Shown: positions 1-51,309 of the stretch, in pieces
Layout of the letters: each line of letters starts with the position of its first letter
Position numbering within the stretch: position 1 is the stretch's first letter
Source: Escherichia phage ukendt
Direction: 5' to 3' (one strand)
Sequence record: NC_052661.1
Length of the DNA: 64,000 nt
The notes under the pieces: generated by a model
The model's database searches: none
Seen by the model: only the letters and a program-made list of their open reading frames with translations
What the model was told of the DNA's origin: nothing
Translations under genes and position numbers: made by a program

Positions 1-17
1 TTATTTCATAAAACCGC

Positions 18-77
18 TTGCAATACTGCAAAAATAAAGTAAACTATATTCATCAAGGCGGGGAATGGTCCGCCGCC
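18..77 (+). promoter_or_regulatory. sigma70-type promoter (TTGCAA/TAAACT) plus GC-rich hairpin at predicted transcript 5' end
   Basis: -35 at 18-23, -10 at 40-45, inverted repeat GGCGG..CCGCC 57-77, then RBS and ATG at 102. Confidence 0.5.
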
Positions 78-101
78 TAACAAAGAGAAGAGGAAAACAT
101 C

Positions 102-275
102 ATGATCACTTTCGCTACCCGTGAAGCCGCTCGCAACGTTGCACGTAAAGTTAACGCCGCCAACCTGGGCGCTACACTTAAAGCCCCGGTGAAAGATGAA
201 TCAGGCAAATGGATCTTCCCTGGTCTGCGTCATGCTGACAAGTTAGGTACTTTAAGCCTTAAAAATAATCGTTGA
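102..275 (+). CDS. hypothetical small protein (57 aa, MITFATREAARN...)
   Basis: ATG after RBS gaagaggaaaac; N-terminus MITFA shared with next ORF; below ORF-track size cutoff. Confidence 0.5.
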   Translation: MITFATREAARNVARKVNAANLGATLKAPVKDESGKWIFPGLRHADKLGTLSLKNNR

Positions 276-306
276 CTTTTCGTTATAGCGCCTTACAATG
301 GGCGCT
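272..306 (+). promoter_or_regulatory. promoter (TTGACT) with hairpin TAGCGCC-N7-GGCGCTA
   Basis: -35 TTGACT 272-277 overlaps stop of previous ORF; perfect 7-bp inverted repeat 286-306. Confidence 0.45.
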
Positions 307-342
307 ATAGAGAAGAGAAACCACTATTAACAAGGAAACATC

Positions 343-564
343 ATGATTACTTTTGCTATTGTCGCCGTTGTTGCTGGTCAGGTTTACGTAAATGATACAT
401 TCACCACAGAAGACAAGGCAGCAGGAGACATCACCGCCGCTTATAATGAGTGCAAGGCAGTAGAAAGGATGTTAGCGCCTTGTATGCTAATGAGTGAACG
501 CCAGGACGGAATAACAGTATTTACTAACATTGAAACAGGGTACCAAATGGTAGTAACAAAATAA
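343..564 (+). CDS. hypothetical small protein (73 aa)
   Basis: ORF track; RBS aaggaaa; N-terminal MITFA like ORF 102-275. Confidence 0.55.
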   Translation: MITFAIVAVVAGQVYVNDTFTTEDKAAGDITAAYNECKAVERMLAPCMLMSERQDGITVFTNIETGYQMVVTK

Positions 565-567
565 AGC

Positions 568-626
568 TTGACACCGATTTAATTTTTAGTAAACTGTTAC
601 ACGTAGGGCGGGAATAGTTCCCGCTC
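568..626 (+). promoter_or_regulatory. promoter TTGACA-N16-TAAACT plus hairpin GGGCGGG-AATAGTT-CCCGCTC
   Basis: -35 568-573, -10 590-595, hairpin 606-626. Confidence 0.6.
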
Positions 627-643
627 AAAAAGAGAGAAAGACC

Positions 644-997
644 ATGAAAGCACAAAATGCAATTAAAGAGTACATCCTTGCCGCTATCGATTTTAATGAT
701 TACGGTATTACAACCGAAAAAGAGAAGATCGCGGAATTGATGCGCCGTTTTAATTCCGAGTACTGGTACCCTGATAACCAATCACGTTTTAATTATAGTA
801 TTGTTAAAGCACTTGCATCATGGTTACAAGGCTTGCCATCAGATATCAATATCGCTTTCGAATATTGGGAAATTGATCGCCTGTTAACATCCTGGGGATA
901 CATTAAAGAGAATAGCAGCGATGATAAAATCCAACGAGAAAGGGAAAATTATTGGCTTTATATTGCAGGCGTGATCCTTGCTTGCTCTTATGAATGA
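644..997 (+). CDS. hypothetical protein (117 aa)
   Basis: ORF track; RBS agagagaaag 6 nt upstream. Confidence 0.55.
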   Translation: MKAQNAIKEYILAAIDFNDYGITTEKEKIAELMRRFNSEYWYPDNQSRFNYSIVKALASWLQGLPSDINIAFEYWEIDRLLTSWGYIKENSSDDKIQRERENYWLYIAGVILACSYE

Positions 998-1003
998 TAA
1001 ACC

Positions 1004-1056
1004 TTGACAATTTTACAAAACAGTTTAAATTAACAATATAGCGGCAATGGTGCCGC
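1004..1056 (+). promoter_or_regulatory. promoter TTGACA plus hairpin GCGGC-AATGGT-GCCGC
   Basis: -35 1004-1009; hairpin 1041-1056. Confidence 0.55.
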
Positions 1057-1076
1057 TCATATGAAGAGGAAACAAA

Positions 1077-1223
1077 ATGAATACATCTAATCGCGCAGAA
1101 AAAATTCAATCTTCCAAGATCCGCAAGGCCTGGAACGAGGAAGTGATCCGCAAAGGCGACAAGCGCAATAAAACAAAGCGCGGGAAGAGTGACAAATATA
1201 ATTGGATGGATTTAGAGGATTAA
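1077..1223 (+). CDS. hypothetical small basic protein (48 aa)
   Basis: ATG after RBS gaagaggaaac; Lys/Arg-rich; followed by intrinsic terminator. Confidence 0.45.
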   Translation: MNTSNRAEKIQSSKIRKAWNEEVIRKGDKRNKTKRGKSDKYNWMDLED

Positions 1224-1231
1224 CATAACAA

Positions 1232-1257
1232 GGGCGCATCAAGCGCCCTTTCTTTTT
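1232..1257 (+). terminator. rho-independent terminator GGGCGC-loop-GCGCCC-TTTCTTTTT
   Basis: GC stem plus T-tract; same sequence recurs at 5857-5882. Confidence 0.7.
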
Positions 1258-1278
1258 ACATGTAGAGGATAAACAAAA

Positions 1279-1464
1279 ATGATTTTAAACGAGCTTAAAA
1301 CAGCCTACAACGCAACATTAAAAATAGCCGTGCGTTACCGTGATGCGTACGGTTTTATCGCGCAGGGCGTGATCCTGGGCTTTTCTGACGATGGTTTGAT
1401 CTATGTTGATGCACATCACAACAAGGTTAAACCGGAAAACGTTATCAATATAAAATATCTTTAA
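1279..1464 (+). CDS. hypothetical protein (61 aa)
   Basis: ORF track; RBS agaggataaac. Confidence 0.5.
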   Translation: MILNELKTAYNATLKIAVRYRDAYGFIAQGVILGFSDDGLIYVDAHHNKVKPENVINIKYL

Positions 1465-1470
1465 AAGTGG

Positions 1471-1527
1471 TTGACACCATAACCGGACCTGTTAAACTGT
1501 ATTACATCAGGCGGGGAATAGTTCCCC
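1471..1527 (+). promoter_or_regulatory. promoter TTGACA-N16-TAAACT plus hairpin GGGG-AATAGTT-CCCC
   Basis: -35 1471-1476, -10 1493-1498, hairpin 1513-1527. Confidence 0.55.
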
Positions 1528-1550
1528 CACCATACAAAAAGGTAAATATT

Positions 1551-1757
1551 ATGATCACCGCAAAACAAGAAAAAATCATTATCGACGTTGCAGCCGTTGC
1601 CGCTATTGCTATTATTGGATCTTATTATGATACCCGTTTCCCGTCGGCTATGCATGAGATCGCCGCCGTTGCATCAGTCGGCGTGCTGTTTTACGTTGGT
1701 AAACGCTATTTATCACCAATGATTAACAAGCTGACACCGTGGAAAAATAAAGGTTGA
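1551..1757 (+). CDS. hypothetical small membrane protein (68 aa)
   Basis: In-frame ATG after RBS aaaaaggtaaat; track ORF from 1467 would span the promoter; two hydrophobic segments. Confidence 0.5.
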   Translation: MITAKQEKIIIDVAAVAAIAIIGSYYDTRFPSAMHEIAAVASVGVLFYVGKRYLSPMINKLTPWKNKG

Positions 1758-1808
1758 TCCTGTTTTATATTGTGTTATAGTTATCGTGTAGGGCGGCAAT
1801 GGTGCCGC
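1754..1808 (+). promoter_or_regulatory. promoter (TTGATC) plus hairpin GCGGC-AATGGT-GCCGC
   Basis: hairpin 1793-1808 preceded by GTAGG box. Confidence 0.5.
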
Positions 1809-1829
1809 GCCCCCTTTGAGGATGAAATC

Positions 1830-2114
1830 ATGAGTAAAGCTAACACCGTGCTAATGTTTTCCCTGATTAATGATCCCGCTTACTTGTCCAACATGACGCA
1901 GGAGGGTAACACATTAACGGCAACATTCACCAATAAGCTTGACCGAGTGATCATCATCTCACTGAAAACAGTTAGTAAAGGCTTTTACTCGTTAGCTTAT
2001 CATTGGATCACCGATACCGATGAGACAAGCCAGGACTATAGCGCCCCTTTCCCTGAATCAATGGCACGGGAGATCATCGCCGCCGTTGTAAATGATGGTT
2101 TGTTTACTGCATAA
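1830..2114 (+). CDS. hypothetical protein (94 aa)
   Basis: In-frame ATG after RBS tttgaggatgaa, downstream of hairpin; track ORF start 1770 lies inside the promoter. Confidence 0.5.
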   Translation: MSKANTVLMFSLINDPAYLSNMTQEGNTLTATFTNKLDRVIIISLKTVSKGFYSLAYHWITDTDETSQDYSAPFPESMAREIIAAVVNDGLFTA

Positions 2115-2131
2115 ATAATTTAGAAAAAGGC

Positions 2132-2188
2132 TTGCAATCATTTTGAGATAGTGTATATTTAATTCATAGGGCGGCGGGAATAGTTCCC
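2132..2188 (+). promoter_or_regulatory. promoter TTGCAA plus ATAGGGCGGCGGG-AATAGTT-CCC element
   Basis: -35 2132-2137; conserved box 2168-2188. Confidence 0.5.
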
Positions 2189-2211
2189 AAAGCAAACGAG
2201 AGGATTACACG

Positions 2212-2331
2212 ATGAGCAAGTACACAGTAGAATACACGGTAGAAAATCCGGCAGTATCCGAAGGTAAAAAGATGACATTTGCCATCAGTATAATCGCTTT
2301 CGTTGTCACTATCTTATCAATCATCTTATAA
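2212..2331 (+). CDS. hypothetical hydrophobic peptide (39 aa)
   Basis: ATG after RBS gagaggatta; C-terminal hydrophobic stretch. Confidence 0.35.
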   Translation: MSKYTVEYTVENPAVSEGKKMTFAISIIAFVVTILSIIL

Positions 2332-2341
2332 GGTGCACACC

Positions 2342-2503
2342 ATGAAAACAACAGATATTATCAAAGAGATCGCCCTTGCCGCTGGCGTTGAGATCGAGGA
2401 AGTGATCGCGCTCAATCTTACAGAAAACGATCTGCGCAACTATGAAGCGGAAAGCGTGAAAGCAAGCGGTGCGATCCTGGCATATAATCCGGCTAACAAG
2501 TAA
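2342..2503 (+). CDS. hypothetical small protein (53 aa)
   Basis: In-frame ATG after RBS taaggtg; track ORF begins upstream at 2303. Confidence 0.45.
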   Translation: MKTTDIIKEIALAAGVEIEEVIALNLTENDLRNYEAESVKASGAILAYNPANK

Positions 2504-2512
2504 GGGGATAAC

Positions 2513-2623
2513 ATGAATCCGAAAGATATGCAAGCATGGAAAGGGTACGACGATCTGAGCGCCTTGCGTAATAAGTCCAGCCGTAACCTTAGACGATTGC
2601 AAGCAAAGAAAAAGAAAAAATAG
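2513..2623 (+). CDS. hypothetical basic peptide (36 aa)
   Basis: ATG after RBS taaggggataac; Lys-rich C-terminus. Confidence 0.3.
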   Translation: MNPKDMQAWKGYDDLSALRNKSSRNLRRLQAKKKKK

Positions 2624-2624
2624 T

Positions 2625-2680
2625 TTGACAAGTCCGCTTAATCTGATAATATGTATCTTGTAGGGCGGCAATGGTGCCGC
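2625..2680 (+). promoter_or_regulatory. promoter TTGACA-N16-TAATAT plus hairpin GCGGC-AATGGT-GCCGC
   Basis: -35 2625-2630; hairpin 2665-2680. Confidence 0.6.
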
Positions 2681-2701
2681 TCACAAGAAGAGAGAAAAAT
2701 C

Positions 2702-2986
2702 ATGAAAATCACAAAAAGCCTAACTAATTATGCAGCACGTCGCGGATTATGTTTAACCGTTGAAAACTTAGGGAAAGAAGACTTTTTGTGTTTTTGGGAG
2801 CTTGAAAACGATTGCGAGTGGATGTTTTCCTATTCTATCTGCGAAGATCAAAACGGTTGTTTGTTAACCTGGCGCGGTAATATTTATTTACCGGAAGAAA
2901 TTAAAGAGGAATTACCAGGTACGATCATGACAGAGAGACAGCTTAAGGAAATGATTAATTTTGTAGGGCAAAACATTAAAAAATAA
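2702..2986 (+). CDS. hypothetical protein (94 aa)
   Basis: In-frame ATG after RBS agagagaaaaatc. Confidence 0.5.
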   Translation: MKITKSLTNYAARRGLCLTVENLGKEDFLCFWELENDCEWMFSYSICEDQNGCLLTWRGNIYLPEEIKEELPGTIMTERQLKEMINFVGQNIKK

Positions 2987-2987
2987 T

Positions 2988-3049
2988 TTGACAGCACGCA
3001 AACAACGTAGTAAAGTTTACCACATAGGGCGGCGGAATGGTCCACCGCT
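2988..3049 (+). promoter_or_regulatory. promoter TTGACA-N17-TAAAGT plus imperfect GGCGGCGG-AATGGT-CCACCGC hairpin
   Basis: -35 2988-2993; conserved CATAGGGCGG box. Confidence 0.55.
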
Positions 3050-3071
3050 CACAACAGAAGAGAAACAAATC

Positions 3072-3242
3072 ATGATCCCGACTATGTTTTATGTATCGCG
3101 CAAAGGTCACAATATTTTTTGGTCTGAAGATTTAAATGAAGCCATGACGTTTGCCCGTGATCGTGTTGCTATCGGTGGCGTTAACATCACCGTAACCGAT
3201 GAAAATGGCATTGAATACTATAACGGCGACGATGAAGAGTAA
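3072..3242 (+). CDS. hypothetical small protein (56 aa)
   Basis: In-frame ATG after RBS agaagagaaacaaatc. Confidence 0.45.
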   Translation: MIPTMFYVSRKGHNIFWSEDLNEAMTFARDRVAIGGVNITVTDENGIEYYNGDDEE

Positions 3243-3249
3243 TTAATGA

Positions 3250-3267
3250 GGCGGGGAGTACCCCGCC
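3250..3267 (+). promoter_or_regulatory. GC hairpin GGCGGGG-AGTA-CCCCGCC with no recognisable -35/-10
   Basis: perfect 7-bp stem right after stop of previous gene, before RBS of next. Confidence 0.4.
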
Positions 3268-3286
3268 GTCAATAAAGAGGTAAATC

Positions 3287-3556
3287 ATGAAAATATCATT
3301 GGACGTTGCAATCAAGGCCATCGAATCCGGTTACATCCTGGTAAAAGATGATAAGGCTAAAATAGTGCATCATGTTAACAAGGAAACAGGCGAGAGCATG
3401 ATCACATATAAAGCCGCCTACTTTCTCCAATCAGTAGCAGATCCGCGCGTACAACGCCAGGTTACAGCGGCTATTGCTAAAAAATTATGTGCTTTACAGG
3501 GTGCAAGTTTTAACGAGATTGCCCCGTGTTTTGAGTGGTCAAGCTTGAAAAAATAA
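3287..3556 (+). CDS. hypothetical protein (89 aa)
   Basis: ORF track; RBS aaagaggtaaatc. Confidence 0.55.
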   Translation: MKISLDVAIKAIESGYILVKDDKAKIVHHVNKETGESMITYKAAYFLQSVADPRVQRQVTAAIAKKLCALQGASFNEIAPCFEWSSLKK

Positions 3557-3557
3557 T

Positions 3558-3619
3558 TTGACAACAATTATAAATCGGGTAGAATGTATTTCGTAGGGCG
3601 GGGCAATAAGGCAACGCCC
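3558..3619 (+). promoter_or_regulatory. promoter TTGACA-N16-TAGAAT plus GGGCG..CGCCC hairpin
   Basis: -35 3558-3563; GTAGGGCGG box 3594-3619. Confidence 0.55.
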
Positions 3620-3634
3620 ATTAATGAGGGTAGA

Positions 3635-3742
3635 ATGATGTTAGAGAAAATTTTCACGGTTGTAATAGTGGGCCTGGCGTTATCGGTTGGAGTGGTTGCA
3701 ACTATGGCTAACATGATCCTATCTTCCCACGGTATCGGCTAA
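3635..3742 (+). CDS. hypothetical hydrophobic peptide (35 aa)
   Basis: ATG after RBS tgagggtaga; single predicted TM segment. Confidence 0.3.
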   Translation: MMLEKIFTVVIVGLALSVGVVATMANMILSSHGIG

Positions 3743-3752
3743 GGTGAAACAA

Positions 3753-3968
3753 ATGATCACGAATAAGACAGGTAAAACGGAATTTTTACGCGGCTTGCAA
3801 GTTGGTAAACCTGAGATCTGGCATTGTACTAAATCCGCGCATAATGAAATGAAAGATTTTACCGCTACTTTACAACGTGTTAAAATATCTATCACACAGA
3901 AAAAAGCCTTGTTAGTAGTAGAAAACGAGATCCCGCAAACTATTATTATTGTCGAGCGTACAGCATGA
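3753..3968 (+). CDS. hypothetical protein (71 aa)
   Basis: ATG after RBS aaggtga; track start 3744 is an upstream GTG. Confidence 0.45.
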   Translation: MITNKTGKTEFLRGLQVGKPEIWHCTKSAHNEMKDFTATLQRVKISITQKKALLVVENEIPQTIIIVERTA

Positions 3969-4351
3969 AAACAGAAATCATTATTGAAATCATCAACGGT
4001 TATAAAGAAGCCTTTATTTTTGCTGAATCAGCAAGGGATCATGAAGGTAATTTTATTGAAAACTTAGACGATTATGATTTTTCTCCTAGCGCGGACGAAC
4101 GGATCGCCCAGGATGTAACAGCCTTTATTAATGCTAATCTTGCCGCTATCTCTGAGGCAATGAGCGACGGCGCAACAGCCAACCAGATCGGGAATGATTT
4201 ACATTTTACCCGTAACGGTCACGGCGTAGGCTTTTGGGATCGCCCTGAAATATACACCACTAACACGGCGAACCGCCTAACCAATGCAGCTAAGTTTATG
4301 CCGAACGTGTCGGCTTACATTGGTGAAGATAATTTGATTTATATTGAATAA
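3965..4351 (+). CDS. hypothetical protein (128 aa)
   Basis: ORF track; ATGA start/stop overlap with upstream gene. Confidence 0.55.
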   Translation: MKTEIIIEIINGYKEAFIFAESARDHEGNFIENLDDYDFSPSADERIAQDVTAFINANLAAISEAMSDGATANQIGNDLHFTRNGHGVGFWDRPEIYTTNTANRLTNAAKFMPNVSAYIGEDNLIYIE

Positions 4352-4357
4352 AAAGTA

Positions 4358-4414
4358 TTGACACAGATCGCCAGTGTGCTAATATTTACCACGTAGGGCG
4401 GCAATGGTGCCGCC
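4358..4414 (+). promoter_or_regulatory. promoter TTGACA-N17-TAATAT plus hairpin GGCGGC-AATGGT-GCCGCC
   Basis: -35 4358-4363; perfect hairpin 4397-4414. Confidence 0.6.
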
Positions 4415-4432
4415 GATAATGAGGAAAGTAAA

Positions 4433-4732
4433 ATGGAAACTATCGCTATTGTTACCGTAGAAAAACTGGTTGTTGGTGATGTATTCGCGTTAATGGTGCC
4501 TAACAGCAGCAAGCTGGGCGCTTATGAAGTAATGGATCATAAAAATGAATCATTTGGCGACGGTTGCACAATGGCGGTAAAATCTTTAAAGGATGGAATT
4601 ATCCGCCAGGCTAACTGGCACAAAGGGAATCAAGTCGGTTTAATATCAGCTAATTTCTTGCCAGAAGAGCAAACGTTAGACCAACTATCAGGCGGTAAGA
4701 CGTTAGCCGAACTACTGGAAACAGCGATCTAA
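4433..4732 (+). CDS. hypothetical protein (99 aa)
   Basis: ORF track; RBS aatgaggaaagt. Confidence 0.55.
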   Translation: METIAIVTVEKLVVGDVFALMVPNSSKLGAYEVMDHKNESFGDGCTMAVKSLKDGIIRQANWHKGNQVGLISANFLPEEQTLDQLSGGKTLAELLETAI

Positions 4733-4740
4733 TCGACAAG

Positions 4741-4756
4741 GGGCGGCAACGCCCCC
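4741..4756 (+). promoter_or_regulatory. GC hairpin GGGGCG-GCAA-CGCCCC (tetraloop) with no promoter
   Basis: perfect 6-bp stem between two cistrons. Confidence 0.4.
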
Positions 4757-4785
4757 ATTAAACGCAATAGGAAGAGGATAGACAC

Positions 4786-5076
4786 ATGAAAAAGATGATC
4801 GCAGTAGTTGCCCTGGTTGTTGGTATTAACGCGCCTGTAATGGCGAAAGAGTTGCCAGAATCCATCACGTTAACCGATATCAACGCAATAAACCGGATCG
4901 GCGTTAATTATCGCCTATGCCTTGCCGCTAAAACTTTCCAGGACGGCACAACAGAGTACTACGGATTCGAGGGTACCCGCTGCGGTGAGCTTGCACGCGA
5001 CCTTAAGGAAGATCCAGACCTTGAGGCCATACCGATGACCGTAAACGGTAAAGCTTACGTAAACCGCCAACAATGA
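4786..5076 (+). CDS. hypothetical secreted protein (96 aa, N-terminal signal peptide)
   Basis: ORF track; MKKMIAVVALVVGINAPVMA signal-like N-terminus. Confidence 0.55.
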   Translation: MKKMIAVVALVVGINAPVMAKELPESITLTDINAINRIGVNYRLCLAAKTFQDGTTEYYGFEGTRCGELARDLKEDPDLEAIPMTVNGKAYVNRQQ

Positions 5077-5207
5077 GAAAGGTAATCATCACAATGGGGA
5101 TCGTAGTAGCAACGCTGGCGCTTATCCCCTTCATGGTTGAACATGTGCTGATCAGTGTTGTCCTTGTAGTCAGTGACCTATTGGAAACGGTTGGCACCTG
5201 GTTTTAA
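5073..5207 (+). CDS. hypothetical small membrane protein (44 aa)
   Basis: ATGA overlap with upstream stop; hydrophobic. Confidence 0.35.
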   Translation: MRKVIITMGIVVATLALIPFMVEHVLISVVLVVSDLLETVGTWF

Positions 5208-5222
5208 GATAATAAATAGGGC

Positions 5223-5280
5223 TTGCAATAGTCCTATTTTTTGTTATACTTATTGAACGGGCGGCACCTGGGAGCAGGGG
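5223..5280 (+). promoter_or_regulatory. promoter TTGCAA plus degenerate GGGCGGC box, no ORF immediately downstream
   Basis: -35 5223-5228; followed by about 120 nt without an ORF. Confidence 0.35.
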
Positions 5281-5381
5281 AAGATAATCACCGGAAGACC
5301 CCGCTATATATTGATAACTAACGCCTATCAAACAACAAAACATCAAAGGAACAAACTATCAAATCTTTACAATTCTACCTA

Positions 5382-5424
5382 TTGACACCGGATCACGCTT
5401 ACATTATTATTTATCACGTAGGGC
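5382..5424 (+). promoter_or_regulatory. promoter TTGACA with CACGTAGGGC box but no hairpin
   Basis: -35 5382-5387; box 5415-5424. Confidence 0.5.
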
Positions 5425-5456
5425 AAATCATTTTAAACGGTAAACGAGGAATCACC

Positions 5457-5840
5457 ATGAGCAATATCATCAACCTGGCAGCGACTGTAAACGGTAAAGA
5501 CTTTAACGGCGCTGTAGACCGTGATCCTATGTGGTGCTTGTCAGTGTTTAAAGGTGACTTGGTTGAAGTTAGAACAACCGAAGGGTATAGCGATGATTAT
5601 AAATGCGAGATCCATTTACATAACTGGTACACGGGTAAAACTTATGCGCTGAATCATGCGTTTATCGGCAAGGTTGAATATAGAGAAATGATCGACGATG
5701 AAACGGGGCAGGATTTTAGCGAAAACGTTTATATTCGTTCCGAGACATTAGCCGAACGTTTGATCGAGAAAATGAAAGCAAAAAATAAAATTAATTTATC
5801 TCATTGGATTGATATAACAAACGATCCAGCTTATCAGTAA
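5457..5840 (+). CDS. hypothetical protein (127 aa)
   Basis: In-frame ATG after RBS aacgaggaatcacc; track ORF from 5382 would span the promoter. Confidence 0.55.
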   Translation: MSNIINLAATVNGKDFNGAVDRDPMWCLSVFKGDLVEVRTTEGYSDDYKCEIHLHNWYTGKTYALNHAFIGKVEYREMIDDETGQDFSENVYIRSETLAERLIEKMKAKNKINLSHWIDITNDPAYQ

Positions 5841-5856
5841 ATAACATTTCATACCA

Positions 5857-5882
5857 GGGCGCACAAAGCGCCCTTTCTTTTT
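5857..5882 (+). terminator. rho-independent terminator, same sequence as 1232-1257
   Basis: GGGCGC-ACAAA-GCGCCC plus TTTCTTTTT. Confidence 0.7.
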
Positions 5883-5889
5883 GCCCGAA

Positions 5890-7370
5890 CAATGTTGATA
5901 GCTTTCGCCTATGAAAAACCGACACAGAACAAAACTGAATAAATCACGGTATCAAGCTAATCGACCATTAAACGAATAACCATACATCCCAGGGCAACAG
6001 GCTGTTAGAGAGCTATTTAGAGCGGTTAAAATCGATCAACAACCAACAACAAACCATCAAAAACACCCTTTTACCTCCTTTCTAGTGCAATGATAACCAT
6101 TATCATCTACCCATGATTATCTATGCAATATAAGCGCATAATTATAATGTTGATAATAGTTCGCAACAACTAACCAACAAACAACATAAAACAATAAGCA
6201 AACTAATCATAATCAAAGGAATAATAGCAAGATGATTGATAACGACAAACAATCAAACCATGATGAATACTAAGCAAAACAACGATAACACGACAAAACA
6301 ACCAACTAACGAACAATAACAAACGAAACCATTAAAATAACAACTATTAGCAAAATAGTGCCTAAATGAAATCATTACAAAACGAATCATTCACAGGATC
6401 ATCATTAGCACGCTATGCCGGACACATAGCGAGCTAATAATAAGCCAACTACACCCCAACAATCATAACCATCGGTGACGGTTATTTCTTGTTACTGCGT
6501 AGCTTGCAATAATTGCAAGCGTAATGACGCTTACACTTATTGCGCTGGCTTATTATTAGCATTATATGTAATTACCAAGATCATAACATTAGCGCAATAA
6601 CAATAATCATTGTGGTAATTACAAGATGAAATCATTAGCAAGATGAATAATTGCACGTAGCAACATGAGCGAATAGCGACAGGTTGCATAGTGTGCACAT
6701 AGTGTATAAACATACAAGAAAATAAAGGCTAATCTTTTGGGGGCGAATACTATCGCGTAGCGATATGTTGAGCACCTTCTCTTAAACGTAAATAAAATCA
6801 GAAAATTCTTGATTTATTTTAGTTTTTATGTTAATAAACGTTTAAATAATAATCATTCTCATATAAATAATAGTCTGCTTGTCATGAGCGGGATTAGTTG
6901 ACAATGTTCCGTCATATGATGAAGTTGCCAAACCATTGATAAATAAGTGTTTGTGTGATTTATAATCAAGTGGCCCACCTTGTCGCTATGTTGGCATGAG
7001 CCTTGCATAAGTCATTGAATACGAATGATAATTATTCTCATTCGCATGATATTTGGGAATTGTCGCTGCGTGGACCTGACGGCCCGAAAATTCGCGTTAA
7101 GCACTTCTTACGTATGCGCCATGATTTTTGCCATATGATATTGATTCTATTAGATATTCTTGCCATGAAACAAGGTGTGTCGAAATAATCTCTCCCCGTA
7201 GATATTTTGGGTTACTTTTTATACAAGAGTGGGGTGTCAAAAATAATCGGTATATATGGGATAATTGATAGGAATCCCCTATGGTAATTCGATTGTAATT
7301 CCTTAAGATTGATCGTATGATGTTGGTGATTGATGATTGCCATGAAAGATGGCTAACGATGAGAGGAGAT
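5890..7370. other. 1.5-kb ORF-free region: A+C-skewed tract (about 5930-6430), 19-bp palindrome GCTTGCAATAATTGCAAGC (6503-6521), ATCATTAGCA-like direct repeats
   Basis: no ORF with RBS; strong strand compositional asymmetry; palindromes and repeats read directly. Confidence 0.5.
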
Positions 7371-7374
7371 TGTC

Positions 7375-7749
7375 ATGCAAGAGAGTAAAAATATTCCGTT
7401 GAGTAGTGCAACATTGCTTCGCTTCTATAAAGCATGGATTGCCAACTATCCTGCAATGAATCGCACAACGAGTGGCTTATGTGGTTGTCTGGTAGATTAT
7501 GTAGATGATTTTGTTGGTGAGACAACTAGAGAAGAAGATAGAAGATGGCGTGATCATTTGTTGGACCGTTTGAAATATGAAATGAGGAAACAATTTACAT
7601 GTGCAGGGCTGGACTACAATCTTCCGTTCAATGCAGATTGCATGGATTACCTTTCAGAGTGTATAAACTTGGCGTGTCATACCAACACGTTACGTCTTCA
7701 ATGGGTGAAAGATCGGATTGAAGATGCAAATAATGCTTGCATTGAATAA
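7375..7749 (+). CDS. hypothetical protein, member 1 of WVKDR paralog family
   Basis: ORF track; RBS gagaggag; shares FY..W...GLC....PF....WVKDRI pattern with 11626, 14846, 18145, 19450. Confidence 0.6.
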   Translation: MQESKNIPLSSATLLRFYKAWIANYPAMNRTTSGLCGCLVDYVDDFVGETTREEDRRWRDHLLDRLKYEMRKQFTCAGLDYNLPFNADCMDYLSECINLACHTNTLRLQWVKDRIEDANNACIE

Positions 7750-7798
7750 AGATGTTTGTATAATGGATGACATAACAGATAGCCAATGAGGAGATGAA

Positions 7799-8008
7799 AT
7801 GAAGAATTTGAAAACTGTCACAATGTTCTTGACTGATCCTACACGTGTGCAAGCACTGGCTAAAGCCAGCCGTGTAGCTGTAGAATTCCAAAACTTTAAG
7901 CCGTCCGTTGTGACAGGCAGTGAAACGTGTGTTATCGATTTCATTAACGAATACTTCCGAGGGAATCCGGTTGGTCGTTACTTTATTAAGGGTCTGAAGG
8001 ATGCATAA
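7799..8008 (+). CDS. hypothetical protein (69 aa)
   Basis: ORF track; RBS gaggagatgaa. Confidence 0.5.
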   Translation: MKNLKTVTMFLTDPTRVQALAKASRVAVEFQNFKPSVVTGSETCVIDFINEYFRGNPVGRYFIKGLKDA

Positions 8009-10353: not shown

Positions 10354-10380
10354 TGTTCCGCACAACGAAAGGAGAATAAA

Positions 10381-10680
10381 ATGAATCTGACCGAACAGTT
10401 ACGCCGTATTGCAAAAGAAGCTTCCTTCAACTTCCCTGTTGAAGAAGTGATCGAGACATGTTTTGCTGAAGCACGAGCGGGAAACTCTTCAAGAAATTTC
10501 ACGCCATCTGATTTTGGTCTGGATAATTCCCCTACCCACCCAGGGGAGATCTACAATCAGGTGAAGTGGATGGATGAAGCAGTAGCAATTCTTCGTGAGC
10601 GTGGGCTTATTGTTTATAAAGAAATGGATCTGAACGGGGCATACGAGTGGATCACTATTGATTGGTCGGAGGTGAAATAA
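10381..10680 (+). CDS. hypothetical protein (99 aa)
   Basis: ORF track; RBS aaaggagaataaa. Confidence 0.55.
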   Translation: MNLTEQLRRIAKEASFNFPVEEVIETCFAEARAGNSSRNFTPSDFGLDNSPTHPGEIYNQVKWMDEAVAILRERGLIVYKEMDLNGAYEWITIDWSEVK

Positions 10681-10889
10681 TGGTTACTATCACATTGACA
10701 GTTACACAAGAGCAAGCAGAAGAATTACGTGATGCAGTGGCATACATGGGACGCTCTTATTATATGCCTTATAAATCACAAGATGTTTTTGCTACAGCCA
10801 TTGAGAAAGCTTTAAACAAATATCGAGAAACTCATGCCGTTCCTAAAGTATCAGCAGAAGAGTTTGGCACTTGGCACGAAGTTAACTAA
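10680..10889 (+). CDS. hypothetical protein (69 aa)
   Basis: In-frame ATG after RBS ggaggtgaaata; 1-nt overlap with upstream stop. Confidence 0.5.
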   Translation: MVTITLTVTQEQAEELRDAVAYMGRSYYMPYKSQDVFATAIEKALNKYRETHAVPKVSAEEFGTWHEVN

Positions 10890-10899
10890 GGAGGTATCG

Positions 10900-11133
10900 A
10901 TGAAAGGTAACAAGATGAAAGTTAATCAGGTACCGAGTGCATACACTTTGTGGCTTGCGCGAGCGTTACACCAGACGATCAAAAATCCTAAGAAGCCAAT
11001 GAAGAGTGGGAAGAAGTTTATGTCTAAGGGCAAAACAACCTTTGGCTTCACTCGTATGTCTGTTAAGATGGAAAGGCTGGGGTACAAGCCAAACTACGCT
11101 CGTTACCCTTCCGAATACAACTGGTTTGACTAA
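10900..11133 (+). CDS. hypothetical basic protein (77 aa)
   Basis: In-frame ATG after RBS taaggaggtatcg. Confidence 0.5.
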   Translation: MKGNKMKVNQVPSAYTLWLARALHQTIKNPKKPMKSGKKFMSKGKTTFGFTRMSVKMERLGYKPNYARYPSEYNWFD

Positions 11134-11148
11134 AGAGGAGAACAAAAC

Positions 11149-11433
11149 ATGAAAACATCTATTCGCGTGAAACATGATCCGAACAGCAGTTACCCATACG
11201 TGTATGTTGAACGTCATGAAGGGGACTATTACACCATAAAACGTAAAGTCCCAACTGACACAGGGTTTAACTTCGATGTTATCGCACTGGATGATCAAGG
11301 TGTTGATAATCTGGTGAATGCATTACTCGCATTGAAGGAAGTACGACATGAAAATCAGACTAAAGGTAAAGTGGCTTTCGATTCTTGTGATCGTTTAGCC
11401 GAAGAGATTGCCGAATGGCGTGATACTCACTAA
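11149..11433 (+). CDS. hypothetical protein (94 aa)
   Basis: ORF track; RBS aaagaggagaacaaaac. Confidence 0.55.
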   Translation: MKTSIRVKHDPNSSYPYVYVERHEGDYYTIKRKVPTDTGFNFDVIALDDQGVDNLVNALLALKEVRHENQTKGKVAFDSCDRLAEEIAEWRDTH

Positions 11434-23576: not shown

Positions 23577-23858
23577 ATGGAACTCGTTCAAGAACTGTAT
23601 AATGCTTTAGGAGCAAAAGGAAAAGATTGGCCCGAACATGCGCTTATTGCTATAAGAGACTCCGATGGTGAGATTAAGTTTTCAAGCGTAAGTAAAGAGC
23701 ACATTGTACAAACAAAACTGGGTATTTATATGCGTGGAACTTATTGCTTATTCAACACCAGAATGGTAGAAGCCCCTGTTATCGAGGATGGAACAAAAGG
23801 TTGCCCCACAATCGTAACAAAAGCTGAATATGAGAAGTTTTTCTACGCTAAGGCTTGA
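23577..23858 (+). CDS. hypothetical protein (93 aa)
   Basis: ORF track; RBS taaggaggtaat. Confidence 0.55.
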   Translation: MELVQELYNALGAKGKDWPEHALIAIRDSDGEIKFSSVSKEHIVQTKLGIYMRGTYCLFNTRMVEAPVIEDGTKGCPTIVTKAEYEKFFYAKA

Positions 23859-51237: not shown

Positions 51238-51309
51238 AACGCCTCCTAAAAAGCCTACCTCATTAAGTAGGTAGGCATAGTATCATAACTAATCCCGCAA
51301 GTCAAGAAC

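Follow-up and report, generated by a model that had tools for sequence, protein, structure and literature searches.

Promoter-hairpin cassettes in the early region of Escherichia phage ukendt: probable expression units that double as crossover points for gene shuffling

The hyperplastic regions of the T4-like phages RB49/phi1, PST/T4 and nt-1/KVP40 contain PeSLs (promoter-early stem-loops), small cassettes in which a stem-loop accompanies a strong promoter of the sigma70 type (Arbiol et al. 2010, PMC2839356; Comeau et al. 2014, PMC4122927). Their stem-loop can take any of five listed positions, one of which is "downstream of the -10", and an AT-rich tract contains the stop codon of the preceding gene (PMC2839356). 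In E. coli, stem-loops at the 5' terminus stabilise the ompA and papA mRNAs, and RNase E is slowed by a factor of more than ten when the 5' end is base-paired (reviewed in PMC3997798). Here we describe an array of small genes, most of them preceded by a promoter and a GC-rich hairpin, in the first ~5.5 kb of a 64,000-nucleotide (nt) stretch of Escherichia phage ukendt (NC_052661.1). This whole stretch is called the window, and all positions refer to it unless stated otherwise. An initial annotation of this DNA held that the array could not be assigned to a described family, which is incorrect given the PeSLs known in T4-like phages (PMC2839356, PMC4122927). Our analysis suggests that these units are probably self-contained early expression cassettes that double as crossover points for gene shuffling, analogous to PeSLs, with a hairpin that may act as a stabiliser or insulator.

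Megablast of positions 1-6000 matched 231 phage records, of which the best were Phapecoctavirus genomes with 96-98% nt identity (top relatives AV125, KKP 3954, TSP7_1, anhysbys and ZCKP1). On this sequence evidence the window is from a Phapecoctavirus (Stephanstirmvirinae), a phAPEC8-like myovirus with a genome of ~150 kb. All of the genes underlying the matched region are annotated as hypothetical in the relatives. The window opens partway through an array of small genes on the + strand that starts ~4 kb farther upstream in the relatives, where the full array is ~10 kb long and has a stretch free of open reading frames (ORFs) at either end. By this comparison, the window includes the distal half of a "hyperplastic" early region of ~10 kb as its first ~5.5 kb. 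PHROG families were matched by 19 of 20 array ORFs; 18 are of unknown function and one is a small membrane protein.

Direct reading, a promoter script and a tool scan identified 13 sigma70-like promoters on the + strand between positions 1 and 5460. Their -35 hexamers, by which we name the cassettes, start at 18, 272, 568, 1004, 1471, 1754, 2132, 2625, 2988, 3558, 4358, 5223 and 5382. The spacers are 16-17 nt long and the -10 hexamers are of the TAAACT, TAATAT or TAGAAT type. A promoter scan for at least 10 of 12 consensus matches returned ten + strand sites, two of which are alternative registers of 4358, leaving nine distinct sites that all lie upstream of genes; its total was 30 sites compared with 14.3 +/- 4.1 in shuffled sequences. 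A GC hairpin follows the promoter in ten of the 13 units, with its first paired base 9-11 nt past the -10, and seven of these ten hairpin-bearing cassettes carry the box RTAGGGCGG. In the 64 kb window this box is present in seven copies, all on the + strand between 603 and 4401; 0.21 copies are expected from shuffles and 0 of 100 shuffles reached seven. The composite pattern TTGACA-N16/17-TANNNT-N5-12-GGCGG occurred six times against 0.02 expected, and the distance from the -10 to the ATG is 45-50 nt in 12 of the 13 units. Thus, the reiteration of at least 12 cassettes that was first reported is borne out by 13 + strand promoters and by a box and composite pattern that are far more frequent than in shuffles. 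The cassette is less uniform than was described: the order of promoter, hairpin, ribosome binding site (RBS) and ATG holds as the general anatomy, but the hairpin lies across the -10 at 272, lies across the -35 with no ORF behind it at 5223, and is missing at 5382. The two hairpins that were said to occur without promoters are present, at 3250-3267 and 4740-4755.

A typical unit consists of an A-rich, UP-like tract, a near-consensus sigma70 promoter, a start context C-A-C-R(+1)-U-A, a GC-rich stem-loop, and a CA/GA-rich, unstructured leader with a weak Shine-Dalgarno (SD) sequence followed by ATCATG. The A-rich tract holds the stop codon of the preceding gene, as read by eye and without statistics for AAAAAATAAtTTGACA at 2978-2993 and 3548-3563 and for AAAAAATAGtTTGACA at 2615-2630; the tracts upstream of the remaining -35 hexamers also read as A-rich. 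At these three sites, the tract is also the end of the upstream gene, namely its final Lys codons and its stop (AAAAAATAAtTTGACA). Because it doubles as the last codons of that gene, the cassette sets the C-terminal residues of its neighbor. Compared with five divergent relatives, identity was 0.92 for the -35, 0.78 for the spacer, 0.87 for the -10, 0.92 for the hairpin, 0.89 for the leader and 0.82 for codon position 3. This suggests that the -35, the -10 and the hairpin are constrained and that the spacer drifts at approximately the neutral rate. Based on the sequence statistics and this conservation, we propose that host RNA polymerase would start at each cassette without phage factors, with the outcome that every gene would be expressed individually straight after infection.

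In the RefSeq record of phAPEC8 (NC_020079), GTAGGGCGGCAATGGTGCCG and GGGCGGCGGGAATAGTTCCC are labelled "putative promoter determined with PHIRE" at the same places, and the adjoining sigma70 part is labelled "putative host dependent promoter determined with MEME". Taken at face value, the PHIRE label would make this 20-mer a phage-specific promoter, for instance an N4-like DNA-hairpin promoter for a phage RNA polymerase, and the hairpins that have no sigma70 promoter would themselves be promoters. We consider this extremely unlikely. PHIRE detects merely over-represented 20-mers, and the stems and loops here vary more than those of N4-type promoters. Contrary to the label, each motif lies directly downstream of a near-consensus promoter of the host type, forms a hairpin and marks recombination junctions. 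A phage RNA polymerase is not known from the phAPEC8-like group, a statement made without a search of the whole genome for one. Both this existing label and the role of the units as crossover points of gene gain, loss and replacement were missed in the initial annotation.

Transcription in E. coli usually starts at a purine that is preceded by a pyrimidine (Y(-1)R(+1)). Of 73 distinct aligned copies of the cassette, 72 have a purine 8 nt past the -10 and 71 have a pyrimidine just before that base. The T and A after this purine are invariant, being found in 72-73 of the 73 distinct copies, and the stem comes next. The predicted start is therefore the R of YAC-R-UAGGGCGG, 3 nt before the stem, which would place the stem at ~+4 to +25, in agreement with the +3 to +25 that had been claimed for the hairpin. 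Our search of the literature on Phapecoctavirus, Stephanstirmvirinae and Vequintavirinae found no transcriptome, 5'-end or decay data.

We chained the window against 13 relatives to locate breaks in homology. Breaks recurred at 607, 2685, 3593/3594/3601, 4379-4413, 4740-4758 and 5404-5424, all of which are in a box or hairpin. Neighboring aligned pieces frequently overlapped by 8-35 nt at these breaks, and extra genes located there were flanked by box/hairpin repeats of 8-35 nt. Box/hairpin zones, which account for 7.6% of the region, contained 16 of 45 distinct homology end-points (binomial p~1e-7, with end-points that are not fully independent); against a null limited to non-coding sequence, the enrichment had p=0.003. 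The junctions in the relatives have the form promoterA-box/hairpin-(leaderX-geneX-promoterB-box/hairpin)-gene where the window has one chimeric cassette. In anhysbys, the promoter of window cassette 4358 leads into GTAGGGCGGCAATGGTGCCGC, a different leader and an extra gene, followed by a different promoter, the same 21-mer and the gene found in the window. Two copies of the segment 4379-4413 flank an extra gene in anhysbys, ZCKP1, KKP_3264 and PsgM04F. A like pattern was observed in Serratia phage KKP_3264 at 3594, with an 8-nt overlap of TAGGGCGG, and a like junction in phage inny at the box of cassette 5382. Promoterless hairpins are involved as well: the one at 4740-4755 is doubled around an extra 78-codon gene in AV125, KKP 3954, phAPEC8, ESCO37, L006 and PsgM04F, and the gene at 3287-3556 is missing in TSP7_1 and ZCKP1, with a gap that runs from hairpin 3250 to promoter 3558.

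These comparisons show that cassette copies recombine with one another to delete, insert or replace entire gene units, since direct repeats of one box/hairpin sequence, 8-35 nt in length, are spaced 200-400 bp apart. The recombination junction always keeps a functional promoter and leader. A more speculative idea, which we hold to be improbable, is that the box/hairpin is a structure-specific exchange site, more than shared homology, where an extruded or single-stranded hairpin or replication stalling would direct the excision and integration of cassettes in an integron-like manner without an integrase, and is also a common RNA handle that co-regulates or protects immediate-early genes. If this were true, the array would be a dedicated "gene-cassette exchange and expression platform" common to Stephanstirmvirinae and Vequintavirinae.

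The structure of the hairpin was evaluated with a covariance model of box and hairpin that was built on seven gap-free copies with the structure given by hand; MAFFT alignments of 32 and of 11 leaders were set aside because their right arms were misregistered. Across the window and 13 related loci (14 sources) the model gave 153 hits, all on the gene strand, so the motif is not absent from related phages. In total, 95% of stem cells are paired. One stem pair flips between CG (40) and GC (27) and is never unpaired, and another is GU in 37, GC in 26 and AU in 6. The covariation analysis that had been suggested for the hairpin gave a stem score higher than all 500 shuffles and all slid controls. 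The apical parts vary yet remain self-complementary (CA-ATGG-TG, GAA-TAG-TTC, GAAA-TGG-TTTC and CGGA-ATGG-TCCA). For 83 distinct leaders from the window and relatives, the minimum free energy had a mean z of -3.8 compared with dinucleotide shuffles, with 95% below -2. The sense strand folded better than the antisense strand in 60 of the 83 leaders; the asymmetry of G-U pairs was uninformative (32 in sense folds and 46 in antisense folds). A search with Rfam covariance models of both strands of 1-8000 at E<=1 gave no match.

The copies are very similar, with four core pairs invariant, and recombination between them is evident, as would be seen if the hairpin were functionless and the palindrome a passenger in a recently amplified repeat homogenised by gene conversion. 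We regard this as very improbable since more than 40 distinct stems still pair, including those with CG/GC flips and length changes, and since another subfamily has unrelated hairpins in the same place. The -35/-10 spacer also drifts near-neutrally, whereas the hairpin does not.

The subfamily in question is represented by the rV5-like phage FV3, which has an array of its own that combines near-consensus promoters with unrelated hairpins (GGCGGGAAAACTTCCCGCC, GGGGCAAACGTCTTGCCCC, GGGGAGACACTCCCC and GGGCAAAAGTGCCC) at a matching offset of 9-11 nt from the -10. Because of the compensatory pairing, the Y/R signature 3 nt before the stem, and an offset from the -10 that is fixed even for non-homologous hairpins, an RNA-level 5' stem-loop appears to be the better fit. 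The part of the initial proposal that placed the hairpin at the RNA level is thus favored, and the function of the 5' stem-loop is one that we infer from sequence. As a 5' stem-loop, the hairpin would form the extreme 5' end of primary transcripts and would also precede each cistron in read-through transcripts. It may hinder 5'-end-dependent attack (RppH/RNase E sensing and scanning), and by sequestering the GC-rich start it may keep the ribosome site open whichever gene follows.

The alternative that the inverted repeat is an operator for one dimeric repressor, also put forward initially, is weakened by these data. The distance between the GCGG and CCGC arms takes five values (8, 9, 11, 12 or 13 nt among 63 distinct copies), and the FV3 hairpins at the same offset have unrelated half-sites, making a rigid dimer operator unlikely. 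A broader form of this idea is that a single regulator encoded by the phage recognises the box and hairpin, as RNA or as DNA, and that the array forms a genuine regulon. The regulator could be a repressor of translation, an antiterminator resembling lambda N/boxB, a nuclease that processes the RNA, or a repressor that binds at +1 for early shut-off. Conservation of the asymmetric box YAC-R-T-A-GGGCGG is much stronger than pairing requires, including the T and A described above; every copy is confined to one co-expressed block, and the promoterless hairpins sit before RBSs. However, the loops differ in sequence and size (AATGG, TAG, TGG, ACAAG and GTGGT), a rigid dimer on DNA could not tolerate the 8-13 nt range of arm spacing, the rV5-like arrays retain the position of the hairpin and not the box, and our analysis identified no protein as a candidate binder. 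Recombination junctions also fall in the box, so homogenisation can explain its uniformity. A target for a single regulator is thus unlikely, and the regulon that was first suggested found no support.

We also considered whether the stem-loops act on transcripts that arrive from upstream, as an attenuator or terminator or as a 3'-end barrier that protects the upstream cistron, in which case the position of the local promoter would be incidental. The stem-loops of RB49 PeSLs reduce lacZ read-through like a strong terminator (PMC2839356). In the window, hairpins 3250 and 4740 directly follow stop codons and have no promoter, the hairpins of cassettes 272 and 5223 would be contained only in upstream transcripts, and U-tailed hairpins occur elsewhere between promoter-like sites and SD sequences. 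By contrast, no + strand T-run follows the leader hairpins of the array, where purine/C-rich sequence of the CACAACAGAAG type is found instead. A scan found credible terminator-like sites on the + strand only at 1230-1250, 5214-5239 and 5856-5874; three more were weak 5-pair stems within genes. This absence of U-tails makes an intrinsic terminator unlikely. Moreover, a 3'-end element does not need an offset of 9-11 nt from the -10 that is fixed even in non-homologous hairpins, and a terminating hairpin would abort the transcripts of its own cassette. We therefore judge this role on upstream transcripts to be distinctly unlikely.

Several observations weigh against our proposal of expression cassettes with a 5' stem-loop that serve as crossover points. 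The predicted 5' end leaves 3 nt (R-U-A) unpaired, a length at the limit of what would block RppH. An additional pairing between the R-U that begins the transcript and a downstream A-C/A-U (CAC/CAT) was rejected because there was no covariation (Fisher p=0.78). The hairpin of cassette 272 spans the -10, so its own transcript would be made without it, and cassette 5382 lacks one altogether, which means that not every cassette requires a 5' hairpin. The constancy of the U-A and the strong conservation of GGGCGG exceed a purely structural need, and four of eight core pairs are invariant, such that homogenisation of copies by recombination could explain much of the conservation. Together, the conservation of the box beyond the need for pairing, the three unpaired nt, the unsupported terminal pairing and the two cassettes without a leader hairpin leave room for a box-reading protein or for homogenisation. 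With regard to gene exchange, the junction at an insertion hot spot (2500) is TAAGGGG and not a hairpin, and 18 of the 45 end-points lie at gene edges within coding sequence.

In the window, the covariance model had seven hits with E<4e-4, all on the + strand between 599 and 4425, and nothing credible elsewhere. It had no hits in the other 76 kb of the TSP7_1 genome. Because that part of TSP7_1 is empty and the window spans most of the other half of the genome, the box/hairpin motif is exclusive to the array. Blastn with the cassette sequence matched 146 phage records, all of 130-161 kb and, among the matches listed, all of the phAPEC8/phi92/rV5 type. A scan of IMG/VR with a degenerate box/hairpin pattern returned ten stretches, with real cassettes only in L019, and a search for related loci with one array protein as the query gave a single IMG/VR locus. 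The contig L019 (UViG 2595698515_000001, uncultivated, 149 kb) has the same box with a different stem (GGGCGGGGAATGGTCCCCGC) at 703-770 and 3224-3290. Genes in 3550-5207 have 82-88% nt identity with those of rV5-like Vequintavirinae (FV3, at 10376-11346 of locus L008, PDX, TH18 and others), pointing to exchange of cassette genes across subfamilies.

The individual cassettes, all on the + strand, vary in the details of this plan. Cassette 1 (18-104) has the -35 TTGCAA at 18-23, the -10 TAAACT at 40-45, a hairpin at 56-78 (AGGCGGGGAATGGTCCGCCGCCT) and its ATG at 102; the covariance model matched it weakly at 48-88. In cassette 2 (272-345; -35 TTGACT at 272-277, ATG at 343), the -10 TACAAT at 294-299 lies in the loop of a hairpin at 283-310 that has arms TATAGCGCC and GGCGCTATA and a predicted stability of -19 kcal/mol, which corresponds to the PeSL subclass with a stem-loop across the -10. 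Cassette 3 (568-646) comprises a TTGACA -35, the -10 TAAACT at 590-595, the box GTAGGGCGG at 603-611, a hairpin at 606-626 and an ATG at 644, and cassette 4 (1004-1079) a TTGACA -35, the -10 TAAATT at 1026-1031, a hairpin core at 1040-1058 (AGCGGCAATGGTGCCGCT) and an ATG at 1077. The same -35 is found in cassette 5 (1471-1553), with the -10 TAAACT at 1493-1498, a hairpin at 1510-1531 and an ATG at 1551. Cassette 6 (1754-1832) has a TTGATC -35, the -10 TATAGT at 1776-1781, a box at 1788-1796, a hairpin core at 1793-1808 and an ATG at 1830. Cassette 7 (2132-2214) has a TTGCAA -35, the -10 TATATT at 2154-2159, the box ATAGGGCGG at 2166-2174, a hairpin at 2171-2193 with the core GGGAATAGTTCCC, and an ATG at 2212.

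The top match to the covariance model in the window (52 bits) was cassette 8 (2625-2704), which has a TTGACA -35, the -10 TAATAT at 2647-2652, a box at 2660-2668, a hairpin at 2663-2682 (GGGCGGCAATGGTGCCGCTC) and an ATG at 2702. Three more cassettes begin with TTGACA: cassette 9 (2988-3074), with a 17-nt spacer, the -10 TAAAGT at 3011-3016, the box ATAGGGCGG at 3024-3032, a hairpin at 3027-3050 and an ATG at 3072; cassette 10 (3558-3640), with the -10 TAGAAT at 3580-3585, a box at 3593-3601 that is a recurrent breakpoint, a hairpin at 3596-3619 and an ATG at 3638; and cassette 11 (4358-4435), with the -10 TAATAT at 4380-4385, a box at 4393-4401, a hairpin at 4397-4414 and an ATG at 4433. Cassette 13 (5382-5459) also has a TTGACA -35, together with the -10 TATTAT at 5405-5410, the box CACGTAGGGC at 5415-5424, which is within a recurrent breakpoint (5404-5424), no hairpin, and an ATG at 5457. 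The promoterless hairpin at 3250-3267 (GGCGGGG-AGTA-CCCCGCC) lies 19 nt before the RBS/ATG at 3287 and forms the left edge of the gene at 3287-3556; the one at 4740-4755 (GGGGCG-GCAA-CGCCCC) precedes the gene at 4786. Among the U-tailed hairpins that resemble intrinsic terminators, the one at 1230-1250 is inside the array and illustrates how a true terminator looks here, and the one at 5856-5874 closes the array.

The remaining unit is a composite terminator-promoter at 5214-5264. Its U-tailed hairpin at 5214-5239, which is annotated as a terminator in phAPEC8, holds the -35 TTGCAA (5223-5228) in its loop and is followed by the -10 TATACT at 5245-5250 and by GGGCGG at 5259-5264. No ORF lies behind this promoter, and a conserved stretch without ORFs extends to 5385. 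The region 5240-5385 starts with GGGCGG and has 87-99% nt identity in 12 relatives. It contains TGATA-N9-TATCA and a sequence resembling the IHF consensus, TATCAAATCTTTA, the latter just upstream of the -35 of promoter 5382. The possibility that promoter 5223 produces a small RNA was not supported, as 5240-5385 has no stable fold (z=+0.58) and no covariation.

Outside of the array, promoter-like sites are followed by hairpins, several of them U-tailed, that lie between the -10 and the SD at offsets of 0-19 nt. Such units were observed on the - strand near 51305, 33221, 25925, 45820 and 52282 and on the + strand near 23855. Composite promoter/terminator units between genes thus seem to be a genome-wide habit of phage ukendt. 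After the array there is ~1.6 kb without ORFs (5900-7500), which is ORF-free in the relatives as well. Within it, 6001-6400 is strongly enriched in A and C on the + strand (GC skew -0.32, AT skew +0.37). Because several GenBank records of related phages start ~1 kb past the array, a physical genome end may be located near 5900-7500. Upstream of the array, TSP7_1 (L003) encodes at 4731-5261 a NADAR-domain protein (Pfam E=1.7e-35) that is annotated as "GTP cyclohydrolase II"; two genes farther upstream, at 2998-4179, is a gene whose product has repeats of the CapR homology domain and an N-terminus resembling a zinc finger. A Pfam search for a recombinase or nuclease among the genes upstream of the array in the relatives returned only AAA ATPase, CapR-domain and NADAR proteins, with no link to the cassettes. 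Depositors describe genomes that are 82-98% identical to positions 1-6000 as Campylobacter, Klebsiella, Acinetobacter, Pseudomonas and Serratia phages, and the true host of propagation may differ from some of these labels.

If our interpretation is right, the PeSL idea extends beyond T4-like phages to the phAPEC8/phi92/rV5 coliphages, which are therapeutic candidates, and a misleading "phage promoter" label in a reference genome is corrected. Differences between isolates in the early region would be explained by genes that come and go as self-sufficient units. The cassettes would mark sites of accessory genes, probably for host takeover or anti-defence, as well as insertion points for foreign genes with guaranteed early expression. 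The very regular hairpin at ~+4 would provide a natural, testable case of a 5' leader designed as a stabiliser or insulator.

Several known systems share parts of this organization. Like integron attC sites, the hairpins occur in an array of small genes, are imperfect palindromes that can fold when single-stranded, and are places of cassette gain and loss. However, an attC site measures 57-141 nt and has R/L boxes, compared with 16-24 nt for the hairpins; each unit here has its own promoter, and the junctions fit plain short-homology recombination. The annotation of the flanks around the array, where almost all genes are hypothetical, names no integrase, and no search was aimed at integrases. 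As in lambda nut/boxB, a short GC stem-loop is predicted early in early transcripts, but the loop is not conserved and the element is present twenty or more times, not once in each operon; no boxA-like partner or N-like protein was identified. The ompA and papA transcripts are reportedly the examples with which Emory, Bouvet and Belasco in 1992 described mRNA-stabilising 5'-terminal stem-loops in E. coli. The predicted transcripts of the array resemble this type in having a stable hairpin a few nt from the 5' end followed by an unstructured leader and RBS. They differ in that three 5' nt are predicted to be unpaired, the hairpin is reiterated 20 or more times in one region, and internal copies without promoters exist.

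The closest resemblance is to PeSLs. In both cases an AT-rich tract with the upstream stop codon is followed by a near-consensus sigma70 promoter, a GC-rich stem-loop, an SD and an ATG, and many copies lie close together in a variable region whose small genes have no known function. In both, the units bound indels and replacements between close relatives, with crossovers in the stem-loop or anywhere from the -10 to the ATG. Three of the stem-loop subclasses are found here, namely downstream of the -10 (ten copies), across the -10 (272) and across the -35 (5223). PeSLs belong to the T4-like lineage, whereas the present cassettes are from Stephanstirmvirinae and Vequintavirinae, and the cassette sequence has no similarity to T4-type phages at the blastn level. 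In addition, one position dominates here, with the stem within the leader at a predicted +4 to +25, the conserved box RTAGGGCGG is present, and the stems have no U-tails, making the terminator role proposed for PeSLs unlikely. Our literature search, which did not cover the phAPEC8 genome announcement, found no description of a promoter-hairpin unit in the phAPEC8/phi92/rV5 group. In our view this highly non-random feature is a PeSL-type cassette for early expression and gene shuffling in a phage group for which it has no prior description, with a regular 5'-leader hairpin that plausibly has a role at the RNA level. Judged by sequence and lineage, the cassettes of phage ukendt are analogues, not homologues, of the RB49-type PeSLs.

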